Shown: positions 47,061-57,134 of the stretch, in pieces
How the letters are laid out: each line of letters begins with the position of its first letter
How positions within the stretch are numbered: position 1 is the first letter of the stretch
DNA from: an uncultured Coriobacteriaceae bacterium
GTDB lineage: Bacteria; Actinomycetota; Coriobacteriia; Coriobacteriales; QAMH01
Assembly (NCBI GenBank): GCA_900544245.1
Contig: UQUH01000001.1
Coordinates: 5,928 to 69,927, forward strand
DNA length: 64,000 bases
Reading direction: 5' to 3'
Made by a program: the position numbers and the translations under genes
The notes under the pieces: generated by a model
Databases searched by the model: none
What the model was told of the DNA's origin: nothing
The model's input: only the letters and a program-made list of their open reading frames with translations

Positions 47061-48437
47061 CTAGTCTGCACGGCTCTTCGCGACTAGGTCGCCGCTTCCC
47101 CTGTTTTCTATTTCCTCGCTCATGACCGGTATGTCGCTATCTTTTATTTTAAACATAAAGATAAGCGGGATGAGTGATATGAGAAGCAAAACGATGGGAA
47201 GAAGGAAGTACATTTGAAATATACCGGCTTGTGCTGCCACATTAAAAGTCGTGGCGGCTGCATCATATCCGACAAACGCAAGGAACGCTGGGAGAATAAT
47301 TGCGCGAAGCGTAACACCCACTTTAACGGCCACGGGCATAAGGGACATAGTCACGCCGGTTGTGTTTTCCCCGGTTTTCCAGTAGCTCCAAGTCGCGCAC
47401 ATTGAGTAGAGGTTGACAGTCAGCCCATAGGCAAAGCCGAAGAAGATTTGCGAAGCAAACAGCAAAATGTTGAGCACGAGGTAGTCTGGCTGGATAAAGA
47501 AAGCGATTGCCCACAGGATGAGCCAGCCGGCAACGCCAACAATTGTTGCGGTCTTGGTTCCGATTGCCTTTGCCACGCGCGCGGCAACGAAAGAACCGAT
47601 GAAGCAGCCGATATAGTAAACCATCAGGATGGTTCCGCTCGCCGCCGGATCGCCCAGGACAACTTTTGCATAGTACGCGGTGCCGGCTGCTACGGTGTAG
47701 TAGGCAATAAGACGAAGTAAATCATGTAGCACGACGCCAATTAGATGCGGATTTGTAATGACGTTTTTGCCCATTGCCTTAAAGGAAACCGTCTTCCCCG
47801 CATCTGACTTTGTTTCGGTGTCGTACCCCTTCGTAACTATGTATTGGATGCTCATGCAAGCGATGTAAATGAGCGAGAAGATCGCAGCACAAATGGTGTA
47901 TGCCCCGACACCGCTCACAAGAGTGGCAAGAGCGGCGGTAAGCCAGGGAACGAGCTGGGATGCACATACACGACCGAGAGCCGCACCGGCGCCCAAGCGC
48001 CCCGAGAGGAACGCTCGTTCGCTCGGCTCGTCTGTGAGTACATTGGTGAGGCTGCGGACGGCCGTATAGCTGATGTTCCAGAAGAAATGACTAATAATGT
48101 AGCCAACGGCGATGATGATTCCTGCTGTTATGTCACCACCGATTTTCGTGAAGCAGAGGATAAAGAACACCATGGCACAAAGCGGGGCGTAGAGCAGCCA
48201 TGGACGGTATTTGCCATTCTTAAAGTGAAACTTGTTGATGAAAACGCCGGCAATCGCGGCCGAAATAATATCGACTGCCGAAGCACCACCAGCAATAATA
48301 CCCGAAATTGCAAGTGGCAATTGCGCCACATCAGTCAGAAAGAATATGAAGAAAGCCGTCTCGAGCGTCGCGGTAATCGAGAAGCCCACTTCCGATATGC
48401 CCCAAACCGTTTTGATCTTTGAATTGATCCCCTTCAT
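47061..48437 (-). CDS. Glycoside-pentoside-hexuronide (GPH):cation symporter-family MFS transporter
   Basis: 458 aa with 12 TM helices. The N-terminus GISEVGFSITATLETAFFIFFLTDV and GKYRPWLLYAP is typical of MelB/YicJ-type carriers. Local GC is low. Confidence 0.8.
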   Translation of the reverse strand: MKGINSKIKTVWGISEVGFSITATLETAFFIFFLTDVAQLPLAISGIIAGGASAVDIISAAIAGVFINKFHFKNGKYRPWLLYAPLCAMVFFILCFTKIGGDITAGIIIAVGYIISHFFWNISYTAVRSLTNVLTDEPSERAFLSGRLGAGAALGRVCASQLVPWLTAALATLVSGVGAYTICAAIFSLIYIACMSIQYIVTKGYDTETKSDAGKTVSFKAMGKNVITNPHLIGVVLHDLLRLIAYYTVAAGTAYYAKVVLGDPAASGTILMVYYIGCFIGSFVAARVAKAIGTKTATIVGVAGWLILWAIAFFIQPDYLVLNILLFASQIFFGFAYGLTVNLYSMCATWSYWKTGENTTGVTMSLMPVAVKVGVTLRAIILPAFLAFVGYDAAATTFNVAAQAGIFQMYFLLPIVLLLISLIPLIFMFKIKDSDIPVMSEEIENRGSGDLVAKSRAD

Positions 48438-48679
48438 GCACCCTCCTTTTATTTAGAAGCTTCTTCGGGCGTGTGGCGTTATCTGCCTTTCTCTTTTGCC
48501 AGATGTTCATACGCCCTTTCTGCGCGGGATTACGCGCTACACGAGTTTATGTACCGGGTCAGATGAAAGCATTGGGCTTGATGTTGCATATAAACTGCGA
48601 TTACTTTGTGCCATCCGCATAGAGTGTTTTGCTCGGCATCTTAGTATTGGCGAAACCGCGCAATGAGTATTCGATGTTT

Positions 48680-48694
48680 TGTGCGAATTGCACA
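48680..48694. promoter_or_regulatory. Palindromic site S1 (TGTGC-N5-GCACA) in the GPH/PucR divergent region
   Basis: TGTGCGAATTGCACA lies 92 nt upstream of the PucR-like start. It follows the same pattern as S2 and S3. Confidence 0.55.
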
Positions 48695-48785
48695 ATTTAC
48701 TATGGGTGCATGTAGCTTGGTGCCTATAGCGTGCGTGAAGTTGAGGGGCTAGAATCAACGGACACGGGAACGAATCGCTCGGGGG

Positions 48786-50405
48786 ATGGGAGTCTTCGTG
48801 GGGATTACGTTCAACATAATCGAACATGAGTTGAAGAAGCTGTGGCCTATCCAACGCAGCCTGGATGGGAATCCTTCATTTGATGACGCCCGAATCTACC
48901 ATGACGGCGAGTTGCCGGCTTCGAAAGGCATGCTTTACATATGCGATGATGTCGAATCCTGTGAAAAGGCATCGGAGGACGGCCATGTGGTGATTTACGT
49001 TTGCCGTGAATCGGCCCCCGGCTTGCGTGACGTCATTTACGACCTCCGTGTTCTCGAGTGCCCCGACAAACTTGCGGTCTTGGATGCGTTGCTGGACATC
49101 TTTTCAAAGTACCGGTCTTGGGAAGCGGAACTGAACATGTGCTGCTTCGAAGATGGGGGGCTCCAGGAGCTCTTGGATGTGAGTGCGTCGTTTTTGAAAA
49201 ACCATGTCGTCATTTTGGATGCCGCACTGAAACTACTCGCCTATTCCAAGGATGTTCCCTGCGATGATGAGATAACCATGGAGTTGATCGCACATGGATA
49301 CCACACCGAAGCGAATATCACGAAGTTTAAGTTGCACCGCAGGTTTAAGCCATGGTCAGAGGAGGACGGGTTTGTCATTAATGATTCCTATGAGATATGC
49401 AAGTACATTACTGTCGCATATTCTTTTAAGACAGATGCTTCTTTTTCGATGATTCTGGTAATGATGTGTAACGTCGAAGATCCGCTTCCGTACCTGCTCG
49501 ATACGTTTTCCATTTTTATCAAGTATGTCGAGTACTATGTCAAGCGAGACTATCCGGCTAATAAACCAGCAGGAAATGCCGTCGATACCTTTTTAAGAGA
49601 TCTGTGCTCCGGCTCTCTTCGTGACAGAGCCGTGATTGCCGAGAGATGCGATTATGTGGCTCTTCCATATAATGCGCGCTTCTGCCTCTTCTACGTGGAG
49701 ACAAAGGCGGACTCCGTTCCATTTCTAAGGATACTATCGGATATCACGCTCGCGGTAGCCCCAGCAAAAGTGGTGGCAATAGACGACGCTCTTGTCATCC
49801 TATGTTTCAATTGCTTTCATGAGAGATGCCATCTTCATTGCGAGGCGCAGCATTGCGCCAAGGGCGCTAAGTCAACTTCCTCGCGCTTAAATAGGTTGAT
49901 GGAATCGTATGATTTGTATTGTGGGCGCAGTTCAAAGTTTGCAAACCTGGGAGATAGCCGCGTTGCCTTTCTGCAGGCAAGGGCAGCATATGACATTGGC
50001 ATAAAGAGCGCTTCCGGATTTGCGGGCTGCATGCCGCCGTGGGGACGAATTGTCTCATTTGATACTTGCTACGTAGACTTCCTGAACGATAATCTTCCCG
50101 AGGAAAAACGAGAAATGGCCTTAATGACCTATGCTGGAAGTATCCTGGAAGTCATCGCCGAGTCTGATACCAGCGCCAGGACTGATAATTACGACTTTCT
50201 GTATAAGTATCTTGAATGCGAGAGAAAGGCATCAGTTACGGCAAATGCGCTTCACATGCATCGCAACAATGTCAAATACCGGATTGACCGGATCGAACAA
50301 CAATTTGGAATCGATACCGATGACCCAACGCTTCGTTTTGATCTCATGCTCGCCTATCGCTTGCGCAAAACACACACTGTGCATAATGCACAATCAAACG
50401 AGTGA
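48786..50405 (+). CDS. PucR-family transcriptional regulator
   Basis: 539 aa. The C-terminal HTH ANALHMHRNNVKYRIDRIEQQFGID...RFDLMLAYRL is typical of the PucR C-terminal domain. Confidence 0.8.
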   Translation: MGVFVGITFNIIEHELKKLWPIQRSLDGNPSFDDARIYHDGELPASKGMLYICDDVESCEKASEDGHVVIYVCRESAPGLRDVIYDLRVLECPDKLAVLDALLDIFSKYRSWEAELNMCCFEDGGLQELLDVSASFLKNHVVILDAALKLLAYSKDVPCDDEITMELIAHGYHTEANITKFKLHRRFKPWSEEDGFVINDSYEICKYITVAYSFKTDASFSMILVMMCNVEDPLPYLLDTFSIFIKYVEYYVKRDYPANKPAGNAVDTFLRDLCSGSLRDRAVIAERCDYVALPYNARFCLFYVETKADSVPFLRILSDITLAVAPAKVVAIDDALVILCFNCFHERCHLHCEAQHCAKGAKSTSSRLNRLMESYDLYCGRSSKFANLGDSRVAFLQARAAYDIGIKSASGFAGCMPPWGRIVSFDTCYVDFLNDNLPEEKREMALMTYAGSILEVIAESDTSARTDNYDFLYKYLECERKASVTANALHMHRNNVKYRIDRIEQQFGIDTDDPTLRFDLMLAYRLRKTHTVHNAQSNE

Positions 50406-50622
50406 ATGATATGTCCATACGCAAAGAAAACTACAGCAGCGAAGCGAACTCATCATTCTGACCTGCAGACTCCGCGCTTGCATGAACGATTACTTGGCAA
50501 TGCGTTGCTGTCTCATCGCCCGACGTGTCCTCGTTGGTGCCGTATCTAGATAGCTATTGCTGCGTCAGCCATTTTCTGTCTTTTGCTGAACGCCGCTGAT
50601 TTTTGCAGGTCAGATAACTGAT

Positions 50623-50637
50623 TTGTGCAATTTGCAT
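50623..50637. promoter_or_regulatory. Palindromic site S2 (TGTGC-N5-GCATA)
   Basis: TGTGCAATTTGCATA lies 123 nt upstream of ATG 50760. Confidence 0.55.
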
Positions 50638-50759
50638 ATCACAATCGGGCATATTCGGTGAGTGTTGGACAATGCGGCCTCCTTATTTGCCCCTCTATAG
50701 TTTCGCGTTGCGGCGCGTCAAGTGCCGTGACAGTTATCAAGGCTGAGAGGATGGTTACA

Positions 50760-52307
50760 ATGGCAATTAAGAAGCTTGATGATGTTCGTCTGAATGTTAA
50801 GCCGATATTCCTAACCCTGTATCACGAATACGTGTTTGAGGGTCCCTGCCGTTTTGGCGATGGCATGCAGCTTGAGAAGGAATTCGACTTGATGATGGCT
50901 GCAGAGAAGTTCAAGGGTTGGTACAAGCAGCTTCAGGATGCAATGCCCGAGAACGTTGTCAACCTGCTCGATCCGGTCGAGGTTCAGCGCGACGAGAACT
51001 TCCTGACCACGGATGACATGCTCGAGAAGCTGGCCGAGGGCTGCGAGGATGTTGACCTGTACTACATCGGCTATGCAAGCCGTCCTTACGACTTGGCGCT
51101 CGAGTTCGCCCAGCGTGTCGGCAAGCCCATGGCAATCACTCAGGCCTGCTGCGCCTCTTCTATCACGTCCGCAGAGTTCCTGGCCCGAGGTCTTGAGTTC
51201 TATCCGTTCGAGGAGTGGACGGACGCCACCAGCTACATGACGATTCTGCGCGCTCGCAAGGCCCTGCACGAGGCGAAGTGCCTGTGCGCCGTTCGTGCAA
51301 CCAGCTCTGTTTCCGTGTCTGCTCCCGATTCCATCATCGATCCCGAAACGGCAACTGCCAAGTTCGGTATTCGCTGGCGCTTCATCTCGGCGCACGAGTT
51401 GCTGGACCAGATTTCCTACGATGACCCCATGTCCAACTATAACACCCCGGGTCGCAAGGGTCTCAACTTCACCGAGGAAGATGCTGCGGCGATCGAGAAA
51501 GCGACTCGCGAGTTCATTGACAACGCCCAGGTCAATTATATGAAGGAAGAGTACGTCAAGAAGTCCATCGAGGCTTGGTACGGTATCAACAAGTTCCTGG
51601 AGGCTACGGAGTGCAACTGCTTCACTGCTCCTTGCCCCGACCTGTGCGCAACGCGCCGCTTGAATGAGAAGCAGTTCACCATGTGCCTCAATCATTCCCT
51701 CAACAACGAGGCTGGCATTCCCTCTGCATGCGAGTATGATCTCGGTGCAATCATCTCCAAGGTCATCTTGCAGGAGCTCGGCCGCCGTCCGACCTATATG
51801 GGCAACTGCTTCACCGTTCCCGTTCGCAATGGCAAGCGCAGCCAGCTTCCCAAGGCTCTGTTCTTCACTCCGGAGGAAGTCGATGAGAAGATGGAGCTCC
51901 TGGGTACCGATGGAGATGTTGTCCTGACCTTCCATTCCGTCGCAAACCGTCGTTGGGAGAGCTACGACGAGCCTCTGCGTCCCTACAACATCCGCGAGTT
52001 TGCTCGTTCTGGTTGGGGCGCGACCGTCCGCTATGATTATGCGCAGGACGCCGGCCAGGTAATCACCATGTGCCGCATCGACCCCACCTGCACCAAGCTG
52101 TTCGTTGCCAAGGGCGAGATAGTCGCATCCATGGGCTACGAGTCCACCAATTGCTCTAATGGCGTCTTCTTCAAGGTCAAGGATTCCAAGGACTTCTTCC
52201 AGAAGCAGGCTGCAATCGGAAATCACATGCCGTTGATCTACGGCGATTTCGAGGAGCAGGTTATCGAGCTCGGCAAGCTGCTAGGTCTTGAGGTCATCGT
52301 CGCCTAA
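50760..52307 (+). CDS. Uncharacterised 515-aa protein, distantly L-fucose/L-arabinose isomerase-like (tentative)
   Basis: ATG 50760 lies 9 nt after GAGAGG. IPSACEYDLGAIISKVILQEL and GNHMPLIYGDFEEQVIELGKLLGLEV resemble the metal-site and C-terminal regions of the sugar isomerase superfamily. The 471-aa antisense ORF is rejected. Confidence 0.45.
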   Translation: MAIKKLDDVRLNVKPIFLTLYHEYVFEGPCRFGDGMQLEKEFDLMMAAEKFKGWYKQLQDAMPENVVNLLDPVEVQRDENFLTTDDMLEKLAEGCEDVDLYYIGYASRPYDLALEFAQRVGKPMAITQACCASSITSAEFLARGLEFYPFEEWTDATSYMTILRARKALHEAKCLCAVRATSSVSVSAPDSIIDPETATAKFGIRWRFISAHELLDQISYDDPMSNYNTPGRKGLNFTEEDAAAIEKATREFIDNAQVNYMKEEYVKKSIEAWYGINKFLEATECNCFTAPCPDLCATRRLNEKQFTMCLNHSLNNEAGIPSACEYDLGAIISKVILQELGRRPTYMGNCFTVPVRNGKRSQLPKALFFTPEEVDEKMELLGTDGDVVLTFHSVANRRWESYDEPLRPYNIREFARSGWGATVRYDYAQDAGQVITMCRIDPTCTKLFVAKGEIVASMGYESTNCSNGVFFKVKDSKDFFQKQAAIGNHMPLIYGDFEEQVIELGKLLGLEVIVA

Positions 52308-52427
52308 TCACCTTTTGGCTTGGAAGATTTTTCTTCCTGCACGCTTCAGATCCAAAGTTGGCTGGGCTGCTCGGGAAACCGAGTGGTCCAGCCAAAATAA
52401 TAGAGCGAGCCGTCAAGGAGCTTGGTC

Positions 52428-52856
52428 ATGCAAACACCAGACCAGATTCAAAGCGAGGTTATTCAGAGTTTTCTGGACGCGGGTGATCCATTGGCTCAGT
52501 TTGAATATCTGTTGACTTTGTCCTATCGACTCGAGGAGATGCCGGAGGAAGAGCGCACCAAGGACGTTCTGGTTAAAGGATGTCAAAGCCAGGTTTGGCT
52601 CTATGTTGATTGGCCAGATGGGAAAATGAGTATTCGCGGAGAAAGCGATACGCTCATGGTGCGCGGCGTGATCAATATTTTCAAAATGATGTTTGATGGG
52701 CGTTCCCCGCAAGAAGTGCTCGATTGTCCCATTCGCTTTGTTTCCGAGACGGACCTTGATGCAATTTTCGACCCGCAGCGCAAGGCCGGTGTCGCCTCCA
52801 TTTACGAAACCATATGTGTTTCCGCACGCGGGCAGTTGGCAGATCACGCTAAGTAA
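52428..52856 (+). CDS. sufE: SufE/CsdE-type sulfur acceptor
   Basis: VKGCQSQVWLYV holds the conserved persulfide Cys motif. ATG 52428 lies 7 nt after AAGGAG. Confidence 0.85.
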   Translation: MQTPDQIQSEVIQSFLDAGDPLAQFEYLLTLSYRLEEMPEEERTKDVLVKGCQSQVWLYVDWPDGKMSIRGESDTLMVRGVINIFKMMFDGRSPQEVLDCPIRFVSETDLDAIFDPQRKAGVASIYETICVSARGQLADHAK

Positions 52857-52868
52857 GGAAGGATGCTT

Positions 52869-53291
52869 ATGGCACAAAGGACCTTGAAAGAGCAACTGGA
52901 GGAAGCCGAGCAGCATTCCAAGGAGGTCCTCGATCAGCTCTTGGACGAGAATACAACGCGCGACGAGTTTCGTACGCTCATGAAATCGTATGTCGGGTAT
53001 CGTTTTTTTCTCGAGCCGGAGGAAATGAAGACGGACGTCATTTTGGATCTTGCAGAAGACAGCGTTGAGAAGCTTTTGAGCATCAACGATCTAAGCGTCA
53101 CGCTTTCCGAGGGGTCGCAAACCTGTACTAATCAGAGCTCTACGGACATCAAGAAGGTCCTGCTTTCGCTTACACTGCAACGTGCAATGGGAATCAAGTT
53201 CACGCCCGAGGAGTCTGCCGGTCTGGATACGATCGAAAAGCTCGCCTGCGCGCTTTTCGATGCGAAGAGTGATTCGACGCGCGTAAGATAG
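52869..53291 (+). CDS. Hypothetical protein (140 aa), helical; the C-terminal part is faintly carrier-protein-like
   Basis: The ORF lies between sufE and sufS, with RBS AAGGAAGG. I recognised no family. The spacing pattern SSTDIKKVLLSLTLQRAMGIKFTPEE...LDTIEKLACALF recalls ACP helices II-IV, but this is weak. Confidence 0.5.
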   Translation: MAQRTLKEQLEEAEQHSKEVLDQLLDENTTRDEFRTLMKSYVGYRFFLEPEEMKTDVILDLAEDSVEKLLSINDLSVTLSEGSQTCTNQSSTDIKKVLLSLTLQRAMGIKFTPEESAGLDTIEKLACALFDAKSDSTRVR

Positions 53292-53317
53292 CAAGCTACG
53301 AATGAAGGGAATCTGTT

Positions 53318-53554
53318 ATGACAATGCCAGACACTACGAGGCTCATCAAGCTCACTGTGGTGGATATGAATGGCCCGGACGATCTTGAGAAGCTAAAAGA
53401 TTTCTTTGCCAAAGAATTCGATTCCGATTTCACAATCGACGCAAATTACGACACCGGAATCATTACCATCGATGGACTTTGGGAAGAGGACACCGACATC
53501 ATCGATGCTGTTAACGAAGCGGGCTTCAGAGTCACTTACGCTTTGGCGATATAG
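53318..53554 (+). CDS. Hypothetical small protein (78 aa), ferredoxin-like/HMA-like beta-alpha-beta-beta-alpha-beta pattern without the CxxC motif
   Basis: RBS is GAAGGGA. IKLTVVDMNGPDDLEKLKDFF...GIITIDG...IIDAVNEAGFRV mimics the HMA-domain layout but has no cysteines. Confidence 0.5.
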   Translation: MTMPDTTRLIKLTVVDMNGPDDLEKLKDFFAKEFDSDFTIDANYDTGIITIDGLWEEDTDIIDAVNEAGFRVTYALAI

Positions 53555-53614
53555 CCATCTTTGATTGTCCGTCCTGAAGCAATTAATGGCTTCTTGCGCC
53601 TAGGGGGCATCTGC

Positions 53615-54829
53615 GTGTTCGACGTGAAAAAGGTTCGTAGCGATTTCCCGATTTTGGAGACTCAAGCCAACGGAAGGCCGTTGGTCTATCTGGATAATGC
53701 CGCGACAATGCAGATGCCCTTGCCTGTCATGCAGGCGATGCAGAAGCATTATGAGCTGGAAAATGCGAACGTCCATCGTGGTACGCATTATCTCTCCCAC
53801 GAGTCAACCAGGGCGTATGAGGAGGCGCGTGAGTCCATTGCGCGTTTCCTCAATGCCGCAGATGCGAGTAATATCGTATTCACTCCAGGAACAACCGGTG
53901 CTCTTAATATTGTCGCATCAGGATTACGCAATTACATACAGCCTGGCGACGTGGTGGTTGTGACCGCGCTCGAGCATCACTCTAACTATGTACCCTGGCA
54001 GCAGCTTTGCAAGGAGCGCGGTGCGGATTTTAGATGTGTCGGGATAGATGCCAACGGCGATCTCGACATGTCTGCATTGTGCGAGATGGCCGCTGGCGCA
54101 AAGGTGGTTGCGTGCACATGCTGCTCGAATGTCCTCGGCACTGTTACACCCATCGAGCAGGTTGTCCAGATTGCCCATGAGGCGGGCGCTTTGTGTGTAC
54201 TCGATGCTGCTCAGGGAATTCGCCACGAGCATATTGACGTGCAGAAACTGGATTGTGACTTCTTGGCATTCTCCGGTCACAAGATTGGTGCACCGGCTGG
54301 TATTGGCGTGCTCTATGGCAAACGCGAGACTCTTGAGTTGCTTGAGCCCCGCTGGTTTGGCGGGGAGATGGTTGACATTGTCACCATGAGTGAAACTACC
54401 TGGGAAGATCTGCCTCTTCGTCTGGAGCCAGGCACTCCAAACTACGCGGGTGCTATTGGCTTGGGAGCAGCAATTGATTACCTGGTCTCCATTGACAAGG
54501 ACGAGGCAGCCCAGCACGAAGACGATCTCATTGCGTATGCTGAAAAGCGTCTCGGCGAGATTGACGGCATGAAAATCTACGGCAGCCCCAATCATCGCAG
54601 CGGCTGCCTTTCCTTCAATATTGATGGAGCGCACCCCTTTGATGTCTGCACGCTTGTCGACAAGATGGGTATTGCACTCAGGAGCGGAAACATGTGTGCG
54701 CAGCCACTGCTTAACGAGCTTGGTTGCACTGCTGTCGCTCGTCTGTCACCTGCTTTCTATAACACGAGCGAGGAAATAGATATCACGGTCGAAGCGCTGC
54801 AACGCGCGGTAGTGGTGCTCAAACACTAG
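53615..54829 (+). CDS. sufS: Class II cysteine desulfurase (SufS/CsdA type)
   Basis: DNAATMQMP, HRGTHYLS, FSGHKIGAP (PLP Lys) and RSGNMCAQP (active-site Cys loop). I chose GTG 53615, 7 nt after TAGGGGG. The track TTG start at 53561 is unsupported. Confidence 0.85.
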   Translation: MFDVKKVRSDFPILETQANGRPLVYLDNAATMQMPLPVMQAMQKHYELENANVHRGTHYLSHESTRAYEEARESIARFLNAADASNIVFTPGTTGALNIVASGLRNYIQPGDVVVVTALEHHSNYVPWQQLCKERGADFRCVGIDANGDLDMSALCEMAAGAKVVACTCCSNVLGTVTPIEQVVQIAHEAGALCVLDAAQGIRHEHIDVQKLDCDFLAFSGHKIGAPAGIGVLYGKRETLELLEPRWFGGEMVDIVTMSETTWEDLPLRLEPGTPNYAGAIGLGAAIDYLVSIDKDEAAQHEDDLIAYAEKRLGEIDGMKIYGSPNHRSGCLSFNIDGAHPFDVCTLVDKMGIALRSGNMCAQPLLNELGCTAVARLSPAFYNTSEEIDITVEALQRAVVVLKH

Positions 54830-54869
54830 TGCTCGGGCCAAACCTGAGCAGAACCAAAGACCCATTGAT

Positions 54870-54884
54870 TATGCAAATGGCACA
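54870..54884. promoter_or_regulatory. Palindromic site S3 (reverse complement TGTGCCATTTGCATA)
   Basis: TATGCAAATGGCACA lies 103 nt upstream of ATG 54987. Its reverse complement matches S2 at 14/15 positions. Confidence 0.55.
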
Positions 54885-54986
54885 AGTGTGATGTGAATTC
54901 TAGTTTCATTGCGTAATGGATATCAACTTTTTGCTCCCATAGGATATATCCGTTGGTCGCGATTGGCTCAAGGCGAGGTGTTCACA

Positions 54987-56261
54987 ATGGAGAAATCGCA
55001 ACTGGATGCGTACCTCCGACGCATGGGGCTGGACTGCGCGGGAGACCCAAGCGCAGAATTGCTGAGGGTGCTTCAGGAACGCCATATTTACACGATCCCT
55101 GTTGAGAATCTGGATATCGTCAGAGGCGAGACACCTCCGTCACTCGATATCGATGACCTCTTCGAGAAAATTGTGGTTAGAAGACGAGGAGGAGTGAGTT
55201 TCGAGCTCAATTTGCTATTCGCTGACGCACTGCAAAGCCTTGGATATGACGTTGATCTTCTACTTGCAGAGTGCTTTCAATGCGGGCGCAGACTCAATCA
55301 TGCCCTCCTTCTTGTCCGAGTAAAAGACGGCAGCGAATGGATTGTCGATGTTGGTCATATTGAGAATTTTCACACGCCCCTATTGTTTGAGCCTCGAATC
55401 TGGCAAAGCGACGGCAAGGACGAATACACGTTTAGACGGCATAAAGATGATGAATTAGAGTGGAGTCTTGTGAGGCGAAGGTCCGGCAGAGAGCGGACCG
55501 TCTGCGTTCTGAGTCTCGAGCGCAGGGAGCCAAGTGATTATCGCTTGCAGTGCAATCGGTTTTGCAGTGATAAGAGTAACCGATTTACCTTGAGTCCGTA
55601 CGCATCTATCAAGAGGAGCGAAGGTCGCATCACGCTTCTGCATGACACCGTAATTAACGCCTGTACGAAAGAGATGCCACGTCCTCTCATACGCGATAGG
55701 GAGGAGCTCTGCTCCACGTTACGAGATACTTTTGGAATAGAGCTTGAGGCGGATAATCTGTTCGATGGCGAAGAATCTGATGCTGCCATGCCGACATACA
55801 GGAGGGTGCTCGCAGTTTTGAATGGGGCCTCGAATGCGGAGAGCGTTGTTAGAGCGGCGGCACAGATGGCTCTAGATGAGAATGCCCATCTGAGGTTCGT
55901 TTGCGCTTTGGATGAAGCCGGGAGGCATGACACTAGCATAAGCTTCTCGAAGTATGTGCAAGAGTCACGCCATGCACTTCAAGACTACGTGCACAGCATA
56001 CTTGATTTGATGGGAATTCGCAGTCTACTTATCGGCGCAGAAGTCGTCGTGCAAGGATTCAATAGGCTTGTCGGGGCGACCATAGATATGCCGACTGGAT
56101 TTACGCCACAGATGTTTGCAGAGCACATGGTATTGCCCTTTTGTCCGGATGTCATCATATGCGGCAGAGATTCGCGCTCCAAGGTAAAACGCATGTTCTC
56201 GGGCGATATGGCGAGTTACCTCGACAGACATCTTGAATGTGATGTCAAAGTGATTTCGTAA
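54987..56261 (+). CDS. Arylamine N-acetyltransferase (NAT)-like domain with Ser in the catalytic Cys position, fused to a universal stress protein (Usp) domain
   Basis: The NAT fold is LDAYLRRMGL...HIYTIPVENLDI...RRGGVSFELNLLF (canonical RGGYCFELN)...NHALLLVRV...WIVDVGH. The C-terminal Usp-like part is RVLAVLNGASNAESVV...DVIICGRDSRS...MFSGDMASYLDRHLECDVKVI. ATG 54987 lies 7 nt after GAGGTG. Confidence 0.75.
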   Translation: MEKSQLDAYLRRMGLDCAGDPSAELLRVLQERHIYTIPVENLDIVRGETPPSLDIDDLFEKIVVRRRGGVSFELNLLFADALQSLGYDVDLLLAECFQCGRRLNHALLLVRVKDGSEWIVDVGHIENFHTPLLFEPRIWQSDGKDEYTFRRHKDDELEWSLVRRRSGRERTVCVLSLERREPSDYRLQCNRFCSDKSNRFTLSPYASIKRSEGRITLLHDTVINACTKEMPRPLIRDREELCSTLRDTFGIELEADNLFDGEESDAAMPTYRRVLAVLNGASNAESVVRAAAQMALDENAHLRFVCALDEAGRHDTSISFSKYVQESRHALQDYVHSILDLMGIRSLLIGAEVVVQGFNRLVGATIDMPTGFTPQMFAEHMVLPFCPDVIICGRDSRSKVKRMFSGDMASYLDRHLECDVKVIS

Positions 56262-56324: not shown

Positions 56325-57134
56325 ATGCTGAGCCTCCTACATGCCGTCTTTTGCATGAGCGCTGCCTTCGAATACGTTCACGAGGGCTTTCCGGGTGGGT
56401 ATAATCGCGGCATGGAAGAATACTTCGACGAAATCATCCTGCTTGTCGCATGTGCGGCGGTGTCGCTTTGCTTCGCCGATGCGAATCACGTGGTCATCGG
56501 GATCCTGCTTTCGGTTTCGCTCGTGTGCATATGTGACATGGTAGGGCTTCGGTGGCGAATCATTGCCCAGCTCGCGTTTCTCATCTGCGCGTTCGCGTTT
56601 CCCGCCGTGCTTCCCTTTTTGCCCGTGTGCGCTTACGTCATGCTGCATGAGCGCATGTGGCTCCTACGCGTCGTCTGGGTCGTTCCGCTTGTGGTGGCAC
56701 TGTCTTTTGGCGGATGCGCTGCCGTCGAAGGGGCGGTCATTGCCATCGCATGCGCGGCAGCCGTCCTGATGGGAGTCAAGGATGCTCGCATGCGTGCGGA
56801 GCGCATGGGTATGCGATTCGCGTTCGACGACTTGCGCGAACGCAATCTCGGGCTGCTTTCGGAACGCGAGCTCGACACGAGGACGCAAGGTGTCCAGGGC
56901 GCGTCGGGCATGCAGGCGCAGGATGCGCAAGCGCGGACCGCGGGACCTTTCTGCAATCTCACGGAGCGGGAGTATGCGGTGGCCAAGCTCGTTGCCGAGG
57001 GTATGGACAACCGCGATATCGCGGCGAGTCTCTTCTTGTCCGAGGGCACGGTGCGCAACCACATCAGCTCGATTCTTGGCAAGCTCGAGCTGAGCAATCG
57101 CACGCAAATCGCCATCATGTACTACAAGGGATAG
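56325..57134 (+). CDS. Membrane-anchored LuxR-family transcriptional regulator
   Basis: About 5 N-terminal TM helices precede the C-terminal LuxR HTH LTEREYAVAKLVAEGMDNRDIAASLFLSEGTVRNHISSILGKLELSNRTQ. The start is uncertain (56325 or ATG 56412). Confidence 0.8.
   Translation: MLSLLHAVFCMSAAFEYVHEGFPGGYNRGMEEYFDEIILLVACAAVSLCFADANHVVIGILLSVSLVCICDMVGLRWRIIAQLAFLICAFAFPAVLPFLPVCAYVMLHERMWLLRVVWVVPLVVALSFGGCAAVEGAVIAIACAAAVLMGVKDARMRAERMGMRFAFDDLRERNLGLLSERELDTRTQGVQGASGMQAQDAQARTAGPFCNLTEREYAVAKLVAEGMDNRDIAASLFLSEGTVRNHISSILGKLELSNRTQIAIMYYKG

Follow-up and report, generated by a model that had tools for sequence, protein, structure and literature searches.

Which protein acts on the palindromes that precede the transcription units of a low-GC island in the genome of an uncultured Coriobacteriaceae bacterium, and to what effect? 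The window, as we call the whole stretch of DNA analysed here, comprises 64,000 nucleotides of contig UQUH01000001.1 (assembly GCA_900544245.1, positions 5,928 to 69,927). Its island encodes a PucR-family regulator of 539 amino acids (48786-50405, plus strand), a divergent GPH symporter, an operon that runs from a gene for a 515-amino-acid protein, here U515, to the gene of the cysteine desulfurase SufS, and NAT-Usp, an arylamine N-acetyltransferase fused to a Usp-like domain. The initial annotation had reported three copies of a 15-bp palindrome upstream of the plus-strand units of the island and had proposed that they define one regulon, controlled either by the island's own PucR-type protein or by a CRP/FNR-type factor. 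All three copies exist, and the total is five. According to our analysis, which is based on sequence comparison, the five palindromes are probably operators of the island's own regulator, which would work as a local activator.

Palindromic sites in the window and in related loci

The pattern TRTGC-N5-GCAYA was searched for exact matches along the whole 64-kb window, and the chance level was determined with 100 shuffles. Five matches were found, compared with 0.18 expected per 64 kb, and none of the 100 shuffles reached five. All of them are confined to the low-GC island, between 48.6 and 54.9 kb, and the 53.9 kb of the window beyond it contain no site. In a scan with a position weight matrix (PWM), the five sites score from 15.8 to 27.2 bits, and the next best match in the window scores 11.8 bits. 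The GC content of the island is about 50%, compared with about 62% around it, and this raises the chance rate of a pattern that contains A and T; the matches might then be fortuitous or a by-product of composition. However, shuffling the AT-richer island by itself gives 0.047 expected matches versus the five observed, and both the position and the flanks of the sites are kept across 60 loci. We consider that explanation refuted, with practically no probability left to it.

S1 (TTTGTGCGAATTGCACAAT, 48678-48696, 25.7 bits) has its core, TGTGCGAATTGCACA, at 48680-48694, exactly where it had been placed initially; it is the predicted operator upstream of the regulator gene, and its centre lies 99 nt from the start codon. 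S2 (TTTGTGCAATTTGCATATC, 50622-50640, 21.6 bits) is the predicted operator of the promoter of the U515-to-SufS operon, with 129 nt between its centre and the start codon of the 515-aa gene. Its core, TGTGCAATTTGCATA, occupies 50624-50638; the 50623-50637 given earlier is one base too far to the left. S3 (ATTATGCAAATGGCACAAG, 54868-54886, 25.0 bits), whose core TATGCAAATGGCACA was correctly located at 54870-54884, is the predicted operator upstream of NAT-Usp, whose start codon (54987) is 110 nt away from the site centre; the reverse complement of S3 agrees with S2 at 14 of 15 positions, as had been noted. Measured from the end of each site to the starts at 48786, 50760 and 54987, the spacings of 92 and 103 nt are correct, and the one of 123 nt becomes 122, the difference being due to the one-base error in the position of S2.

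Two sites had been overlooked. A distal operator-like site, TTTGTGCCATCCGCATAGA (48605-48623, core TGTGCCATCCGCATA at 48607-48621, 15.8 bits), lies in the GPH/PucR intergenic region, nearer to GPH, and its centre is 177 nt from the GPH start codon. The other, ACTGTGCATAATGCACAAT (50376-50394, core TGTGCATAATGCACA at 50378-50392), is a perfect palindrome and, with 27.2 bits, the best site of the window. It is located within the last codons of the regulator gene, where it encodes the ..TVHNAQ.. of the protein end TVHNAQSNE*.

For the comparison with other genomes, loci were chosen by the presence of the regulator, whose homologues are numerous in Coriobacteriia. The set includes 59 loci from a scan of one genome per species and a sister genome, L060, whose regulator is 78% identical to that of the window; another contig, L061, is identical to the window. 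Although the regulators of these loci share between 41 and 78% identity, the sites are kept in the homologous islands, which the initial annotation had set beforehand as the decisive test. The strict pattern has 81 matches in the 59 genome loci and 83 when L060 is added, in 737 kb where 2.3 are expected, and the PWM gives 82 matches of at least 20 bits versus 0.1 expected. The motif extends in these loci to about 19 bp, ATTGTGCAwwwTGCACAAT, and bases beyond the search pattern are also kept, namely T at position 0 (85% of sites), A at -1 (64%) and A at +6 (70%). The position is conserved as well. A site is centred 120-156 nt upstream of the 515-aa gene in 36 of the 36 Coriobacteriia loci with that gene, and in most of the related loci the start of the regulator gene is preceded by a site at a distance of 80-120 nt. 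The 48607 site has a counterpart in L001 and L002, where a second site lies 74 bp from the main one and about 180 nt from GPH. The motif was not found in the Dethiobacter locus L055, whose regulator is 29% identical and whose gene order is different.

In most loci (for example, L003-L013, L019, and L024-L034), the operator of the downstream operon overlaps the stop codon of the regulator gene. Read in frame, the consensus ATT GTG CAA AAT GCA CAA encodes IVQNAQ, the conserved C-terminal tail of the regulator family, and therefore the last six codons of the regulator appear to double as the operator of the downstream operon in most genomes.

Position of the sites relative to the predicted promoters

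The promoters were footprinted by an ungapped comparison anchored on the site centre, with 31 unique regions upstream of the 515-aa gene and 15 upstream of the regulator. The former share a ccATGAc-type block at +41 and a TAnnCT element at about +64, and the latter have blocks at the same offsets. A TAnnnT box starts +63 to +65 from the site centre in all four promoters of the window (GPH, regulator, U515 and NAT-Usp) and in their orthologues, and an AATG block starts at +38 to +41 in the GPH, U515 and NAT-Usp promoters; the regulator promoter has CTATAG there. The predicted -10 box of the regulator promoter is TAGAAT (48750-48755, plus strand), which starts +63 from the S1 centre. That of the U515 promoter is TATAGT (50696-50701, plus strand, +65 from the S2 centre), with the AATG block at 50671-50674, and that of the NAT-Usp promoter is TAGGAT (54940-54945, plus strand, +63 from the S3 centre), with the AATG block at 54915-54918. 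On the minus strand, the GPH promoter would use TAAACT (48544-48549), +65 from the centre of the 48607 site. L001 and L002 have TATTCT at this offset in the GPH promoter, and TAAGAT in the promoter of the NAT-Usp orthologue, again at the same offsets.

With these boxes as -10 elements, transcription would start near 48537 (minus strand), 48762, 50708 and 54952, and the site centre would be located at about -76 from the predicted transcription start. This placement, upstream of the core promoter, is of the activator type. A site with the same geometry stands at every transcription unit of the island, that is, GPH, the PucR gene, the isomerase-like-to-SufS operon and NAT-Usp, in agreement with the initial proposal that the island is one regulon. 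The site at 50378 is different, given that neither the AATG nor the TAnnnT block is present at +40 and +64 from it. Because no promoter lies behind it in this genome, it may be an auxiliary site or a relic; in most relatives, this place is taken by the operator of the downstream operon. The spacer from the regulator stop codon to S2 (50406-50621) is about 215 nt longer in the window than in most relatives and contains no annotated feature.

The regulator could also bind these sites mainly as a repressor, or with a dual role, for example by looping between 48607 and 48680 and between 50378 and 50624. The window does contain such pairs of sites, 73 bp and 246 bp apart, respectively; the GabR octamer binds two repeats (PMC7652997), and the PucR protein of Bacillus subtilis both activates and represses (PMC7652997, PMC13599513). 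The transcription starts, moreover, are predicted ones, which leaves some room for this arrangement. Nevertheless, the conserved -35-region and -10 blocks lie downstream of the sites and are not covered by them, the -35-region blocks match TTGACA poorly, as expected of activator-dependent promoters, and most loci have one site per promoter. The characterised PucR-type regulators, which bind inverted repeats of 17-24 bp, all act only as activators except for that of B. subtilis (PMC7652997, PMC13599513). We consider a mainly repressing or dual regulator improbable.

The palindromes were also considered as hairpins of RNA or DNA that would serve as terminators, attenuators or processing sites. 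A scan for terminator-like structures flags three of the palindromes as short stems with T-rich tails, and for the 48607 palindrome the folding energy is -10.6 kcal/mol (z = -5.3). However, S3 forms no hairpin and the other sites form weak ones (-5 to -7 kcal/mol), and an Rfam search gave no match. The sequence of the stems is conserved, but they do not show covariation, since variation at position 2 is independent of that at position 14 (Fisher p = 0.37) and an A..C mismatch occupies these positions in 23 of the 71 unique sites. Most sites lie upstream of the predicted promoters and therefore would not be transcribed. The hairpin explanation is largely refuted, and we assign it a very small probability.

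The candidate binding protein

Paralogues of the regulator are found in two other types of gene cluster. In the first one (L014, L022), the regulator precedes a 720-aa protein with two URO-D domains, and in the second (L050, L058), the genes for a corrinoid protein and a URO-D methyltransferase are divergent from a RACo-DUF2284-regulator operon. The core motif is the same in both types, some of its flanks being specific to a clade, for example CCATTGTGC-N5-GCACAATGG, and the regulator is the sole gene common to all three motif-bearing cluster types. The density of sites is 2.84 per 10 kb in the cluster spans versus 0.16 outside them, in flanks of up to 8-10 kb; a similar density away from promoters would have counted against the motif according to the initial annotation. 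Seven sites were found outside the cluster spans, in 427 kb of flanks, and none of the seven is more than 2.9 kb away from a regulator cluster. In the loci compared, the motif is linked exclusively to the regulator clade. We propose the regulator as the binding protein because the motif follows its clade into clusters with unrelated targets and is absent from flanking DNA away from these clusters; of the two controllers proposed initially, the PucR-type protein is the one retained.

Other proteins encoded in or near the island were rejected as candidates. The LuxR/GerE gene (56355-57134) is part of the conserved chromosomal flank shared with L060 and, among the related loci, occurs only in L060 and L061. 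The two small proteins encoded between SufE and SufS were not seen in the motif-bearing paralogous clusters.

The regulator is composed of an N-terminal portion that is GAF-like, a segment rich in cysteines (C340-x2-C-x4-C-x3-C-x4-C357) and, at the C terminus, a domain of the helix-turn-helix (HTH) type, HTH_30 (PF13556), which was identified at residues 471-525 with an E-value of 2e-16 and 60 bits, for a cut-off of 27. The recognition region of the HTH, LHMHRNNVKYRIDRIE, is nearly invariant in 33 homologues, and so are the cysteines C300, C340-x2-C343-x4-C348-x3-C352-x4-C357 and C379. In the structural model of the regulator, the loop 349-358 has a pLDDT below 50. The Cys segment is a candidate metal or iron-sulfur site, and the adjoining operon encodes SufE and SufS.

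Most characterised members of the PucR family have a GGDEF-like middle domain (PF17853). This domain was not reported for the regulator of the window at E <= 0.001, and it is precomputed for many of its homologues; the best fold matches of the model in the Protein Data Bank (PDB), Rv2242/MabR (9f80, fragment 161-414) and BAD_0249 (3onq), span the GGDEF-like region and the HTH. The N-terminal part resembles the GAF domain of CodY at the fold level, and Pfam gave no match in the regulator to PF07905 (N-terminal PucR domain), the entry to which the name "the PucR family" is applied in PMC7652997. Therefore, the regulator belongs to the HTH_30 (PucR-type HTH) group, outside the PF07905 subgroup.

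We infer the following mechanism. A dimer or higher oligomer of the regulator would recognise the two TTGTGC half-sites through its C-terminal HTH, and the four promoters (those of GPH, the regulator, the isomerase-like-SufE-SufS operon and NAT-Usp) would be served from a site at about -76. The regulator most likely activates transcription, including that of its own gene, once its sensor part, presumably the GAF-like portion with the Cys-rich segment, binds an effector.

Several results weigh against this mechanism or limit its reach. In a reverse test, metagenome contigs were scanned for the exact 19-mer ATTGTGCAAAATGCACAAT, and 109 stretches were obtained, distributed in 32 sequence contexts. 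None of them has the regulator or the isomerase-like gene, and the Coriobacteriia loci were not recovered. According to a rough estimate, 32 contexts are near chance for an AT-rich 19-mer, the size of the database being not known. The largest context consists of 59 near-identical contigs with a LacI/ABC/GH53 locus of another organism (L131, 7158-7236). There, a TTGACA-17-TAAACT promoter with the 19-mer 31 nt upstream of it separates a LacI-family gene from genes for a sugar ABC transporter and GH53, and the spacing between site and promoter is the same as in the Coriobacteriia. Since the 19-mer is found without the regulator, a match to the motif is not diagnostic by itself, and the case rests on co-localisation together with a fixed position. 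The organism of this locus has a GC content of about 48% and comes mostly from human gut samples.

Other points of this kind concern specificity, promoters and scope. L005 and L014 share one contig, so that one genome has two paralogues whose operators are similar. Paralogues within one genome appear to have the core motif in common, and this motif does not account for their specificity. The sites within the last codons of the regulator could be held in part by protein-coding constraint. A generic scan for the sigma-70 consensus found eight promoters versus 6.1 expected, which is not above chance, and the promoters proposed here are not among them; footprinting is the single source of the -76 position. 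Finally, the statement that the motif is local and not global applies to flanks of up to 8-10 kb of loci that were selected by the regulator.

With the 19-mer occurring upstream of a promoter in an unrelated organism with no PucR-type gene nearby, other protein families may recognise it, and the palindromes of the island could be bound by a regulator encoded elsewhere, either of the CRP/FNR type or another global factor, with the PucR-family protein as a bystander. CRP sites have the form TGTGA-N6-TCACA and FNR sites the form TTGAT-N4-ATCAA. The sites of the window are likewise palindromes, their half-sites start with TGTG as those of CRP do, and they lie upstream of the -35 region at a distance typical of class I activators. 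However, the CRP-type likeness pointed out initially comes down to this TGTG, given that the spacer is N5 and not N6, the inner base is C and not A, and the total length is odd. In all 71 unique sites, the TRTGC and GCAYA half-sites are 5 nt apart, a spacing that is neither that of CRP nor that of FNR. The island has no CRP/FNR-type gene, the motif is also present in the regulator's own promoter, and it accompanies the regulator clade, being restricted to PucR-type clusters of three types with unrelated targets. A global spread over unrelated promoters was not observed in the flanks, where the outside sites all adjoin a regulator paralogue. The lack of sites away from regulator clusters, both in the 427 kb of flanks and in the 53.9 kb of the window, together with the N5 spacing, argues against a CRP/FNR-type global factor, and we hold control by a regulator encoded elsewhere to be decidedly unlikely.

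Genes of the island and comparison with known systems

The genes that the PucR-family regulator would control begin with that of the GPH/MFS_2 sugar-type symporter (47061-48437, minus strand; PF13347, TIGR00792), which diverges from that of the regulator, keeps its synteny in about 18 related loci and is likely a member of the regulon. On the plus strand, the core operon comprises the genes for U515 (50760-52307), SufE (52428-52856; PF02657), a 140-aa unknown protein (52869-53291), a 78-aa unknown protein (53318-53554) and SufS (53594-54829; TIGR01979 sufS, 502 bits), the calls of the genes after U515 having been taken from L061, the identical contig. Synteny of this part of the operon extends to about 30 loci. 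About 35 loci keep the order regulator, 515-aa gene, SufE, 140-aa gene, SufS, and a GPH gene is often divergent from it. The isomerase-fold protein with seven invariant cysteines, SufE, the 140-aa and 78-aa unknowns, and SufS form a conserved set with no assigned function in about 35 related loci.

The 515-aa protein had been called isomerase-like, a label that holds at the level of fold and not at that of sequence. It has no Pfam match, its only NCBIfam match is a partial one to sulfoquinovose isomerase (25 bits, for a cut-off of 700), and a sequence search of the PDB gave no useful match, so that no membership in the isomerase superfamily appears at the sequence level. Its AF2 model (pLDDT 92.7) matches the L-arabinose/L-fucose isomerase fold over nearly the full length in Foldseek, with E-values of 2e-18 to 5e-12 and TM-scores of 0.60-0.67; for AraA, the E-value is 2e-18, the TM-score about 0.65 and the identity 10-13%. 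As judged from this model, the protein shares the three-domain fold of the L-arabinose/L-fucose isomerase superfamily. The invariant cysteines are C30, C285, C292, C296, C309, C324 and C465. Homologues of the 515-aa protein are widespread among anaerobes, where they also lack a Pfam domain.

At 50707-50745, and at the corresponding position in 21 related loci, a GC-rich stem-loop is found; it lies close to the predicted 5' end of every 5' untranslated region (UTR) of the 515-aa gene, and its stem sequences differ between loci. Single-sequence folding of these 5' UTRs gives a modest mean z of -1.6, and RNAalifold found no consensus among them, the variable stems not being alignable by MAFFT.

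NAT-Usp (54987-56261, plus strand, 424 aa; PF00797 and PF00582) had been tied to the regulon, and a site does lie upstream of it; however, it would be an accessory member, since it occurs together with its site in the window, L001 and L002 only. The orthologue in these two loci shares 47% identity and has its site at -107, compared with -110 in the window, in the same geometry. In L060, NAT-Usp is replaced after SufS by a DUF169 gene, an MFS_2 transporter gene and a 191-aa gene, there is no divergent GPH gene, and the site that follows SufS lies ahead of the DUF169 gene. Weak sites are also found ahead of an MFS_2 gene in L051. L060 shares the chromosomal flanks of the window and has the island at the same place with different accessory genes. 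Because of this identical location with different accessory genes, and because the GC content of the island is about 50% compared with about 62% around it, the core of the island looks like a mobile or exchangeable module. In L051 (6815-12586), identity to the window is 73-89% for the operon proteins but only 42% for the adjoining regulator, and the motif is still kept; the operon and its regulator seem, from these identities, to differ in history.

A broader reading, which we put forward as speculation with a minor chance of being right, is that a Cys-rich PucR-type clade of gut Coriobacteriia senses a redox, metal or sulfur signal through C-x2-C-x4-C-x3-C-x4-C, possibly with an iron-sulfur cluster. 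One 19-bp operator at about -76 would then switch on several anaerobic, as yet uncharacterised modules, namely an isomerase-fold Cys-rich enzyme with its own SufE/SufS pair and corrinoid methyltransferase systems, and the downstream operator would be written into the last six codons of the regulator (IVQNAQ) in most genomes. If this were true, one stretch of DNA would serve both as a protein tail and as a control site. For experimenters, the analysis provides a concrete predicted operator, promoter architecture and regulon for an uncharacterised regulator clade that is common in gut Eggerthellaceae and Coriobacteriaceae, and ties a transporter, an isomerase-fold Cys-rich enzyme, SufE, two small proteins and SufS into one unit. 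Ellagibacter isourolithinifaciens DSM 104140, which carries the cluster (L025) and can be grown, offers a culturable starting point.

A literature search on PucR-type regulators in Eggerthellaceae yielded nothing usable. Among characterised regulators, GabR of Corynebacterium glutamicum, the activator of gabTDP, resembles the window regulator in being a local PucR-type regulator of an actinobacterium whose gene adjoins its target gene and is divergent from it. GabR binds inverted repeats (two copies of 21 bp) from -87 to -23, upstream of the promoter of its target, in the divergent region, and its autoregulation is apparently positive (PMC7652997). The two systems differ in the sequence and length of the operator, in that GabR has neither a GGDEF-like domain nor a Cys-rich segment, and in the effector, which for GabR is GABA, with unrelated targets; in addition, the binding of GabR has been shown experimentally, whereas that of the window regulator is predicted. 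PutR/PrcR and AdeR of Bacillus subtilis, compared here by description only, are also activators with a single palindrome upstream of a catabolic operon, of 17 bp for PutR and 24 bp for AdeR (PMC7652997, PMC13599513), but they belong to a different phylum and their targets are proline and alanine catabolism.

A likeness in half-site layout is seen in IppR of Rhodococcus, whose motif contains the 5-N5-5 inverted repeat ATGCG-ACCTG-CGCAT and is bound by each monomer with the third helix of its C-terminal HTH (PMC13599513). The half-site of IppR is nevertheless different, and its TGC and GCA are 7 nt apart, compared with 5 nt in the sites of the window. Among known structures, the regulator model matches best the C-terminal fragment of MabR/Rv2242 from Mycobacterium, at an identity of only about 16%, and the effector domains of both IppR and MabR/Rv2242 differ from that of the window regulator. 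What the island presents is a new predicted operator for an uncharacterised clade of a known family of regulators, an ordinary local gene switch and not a new principle.

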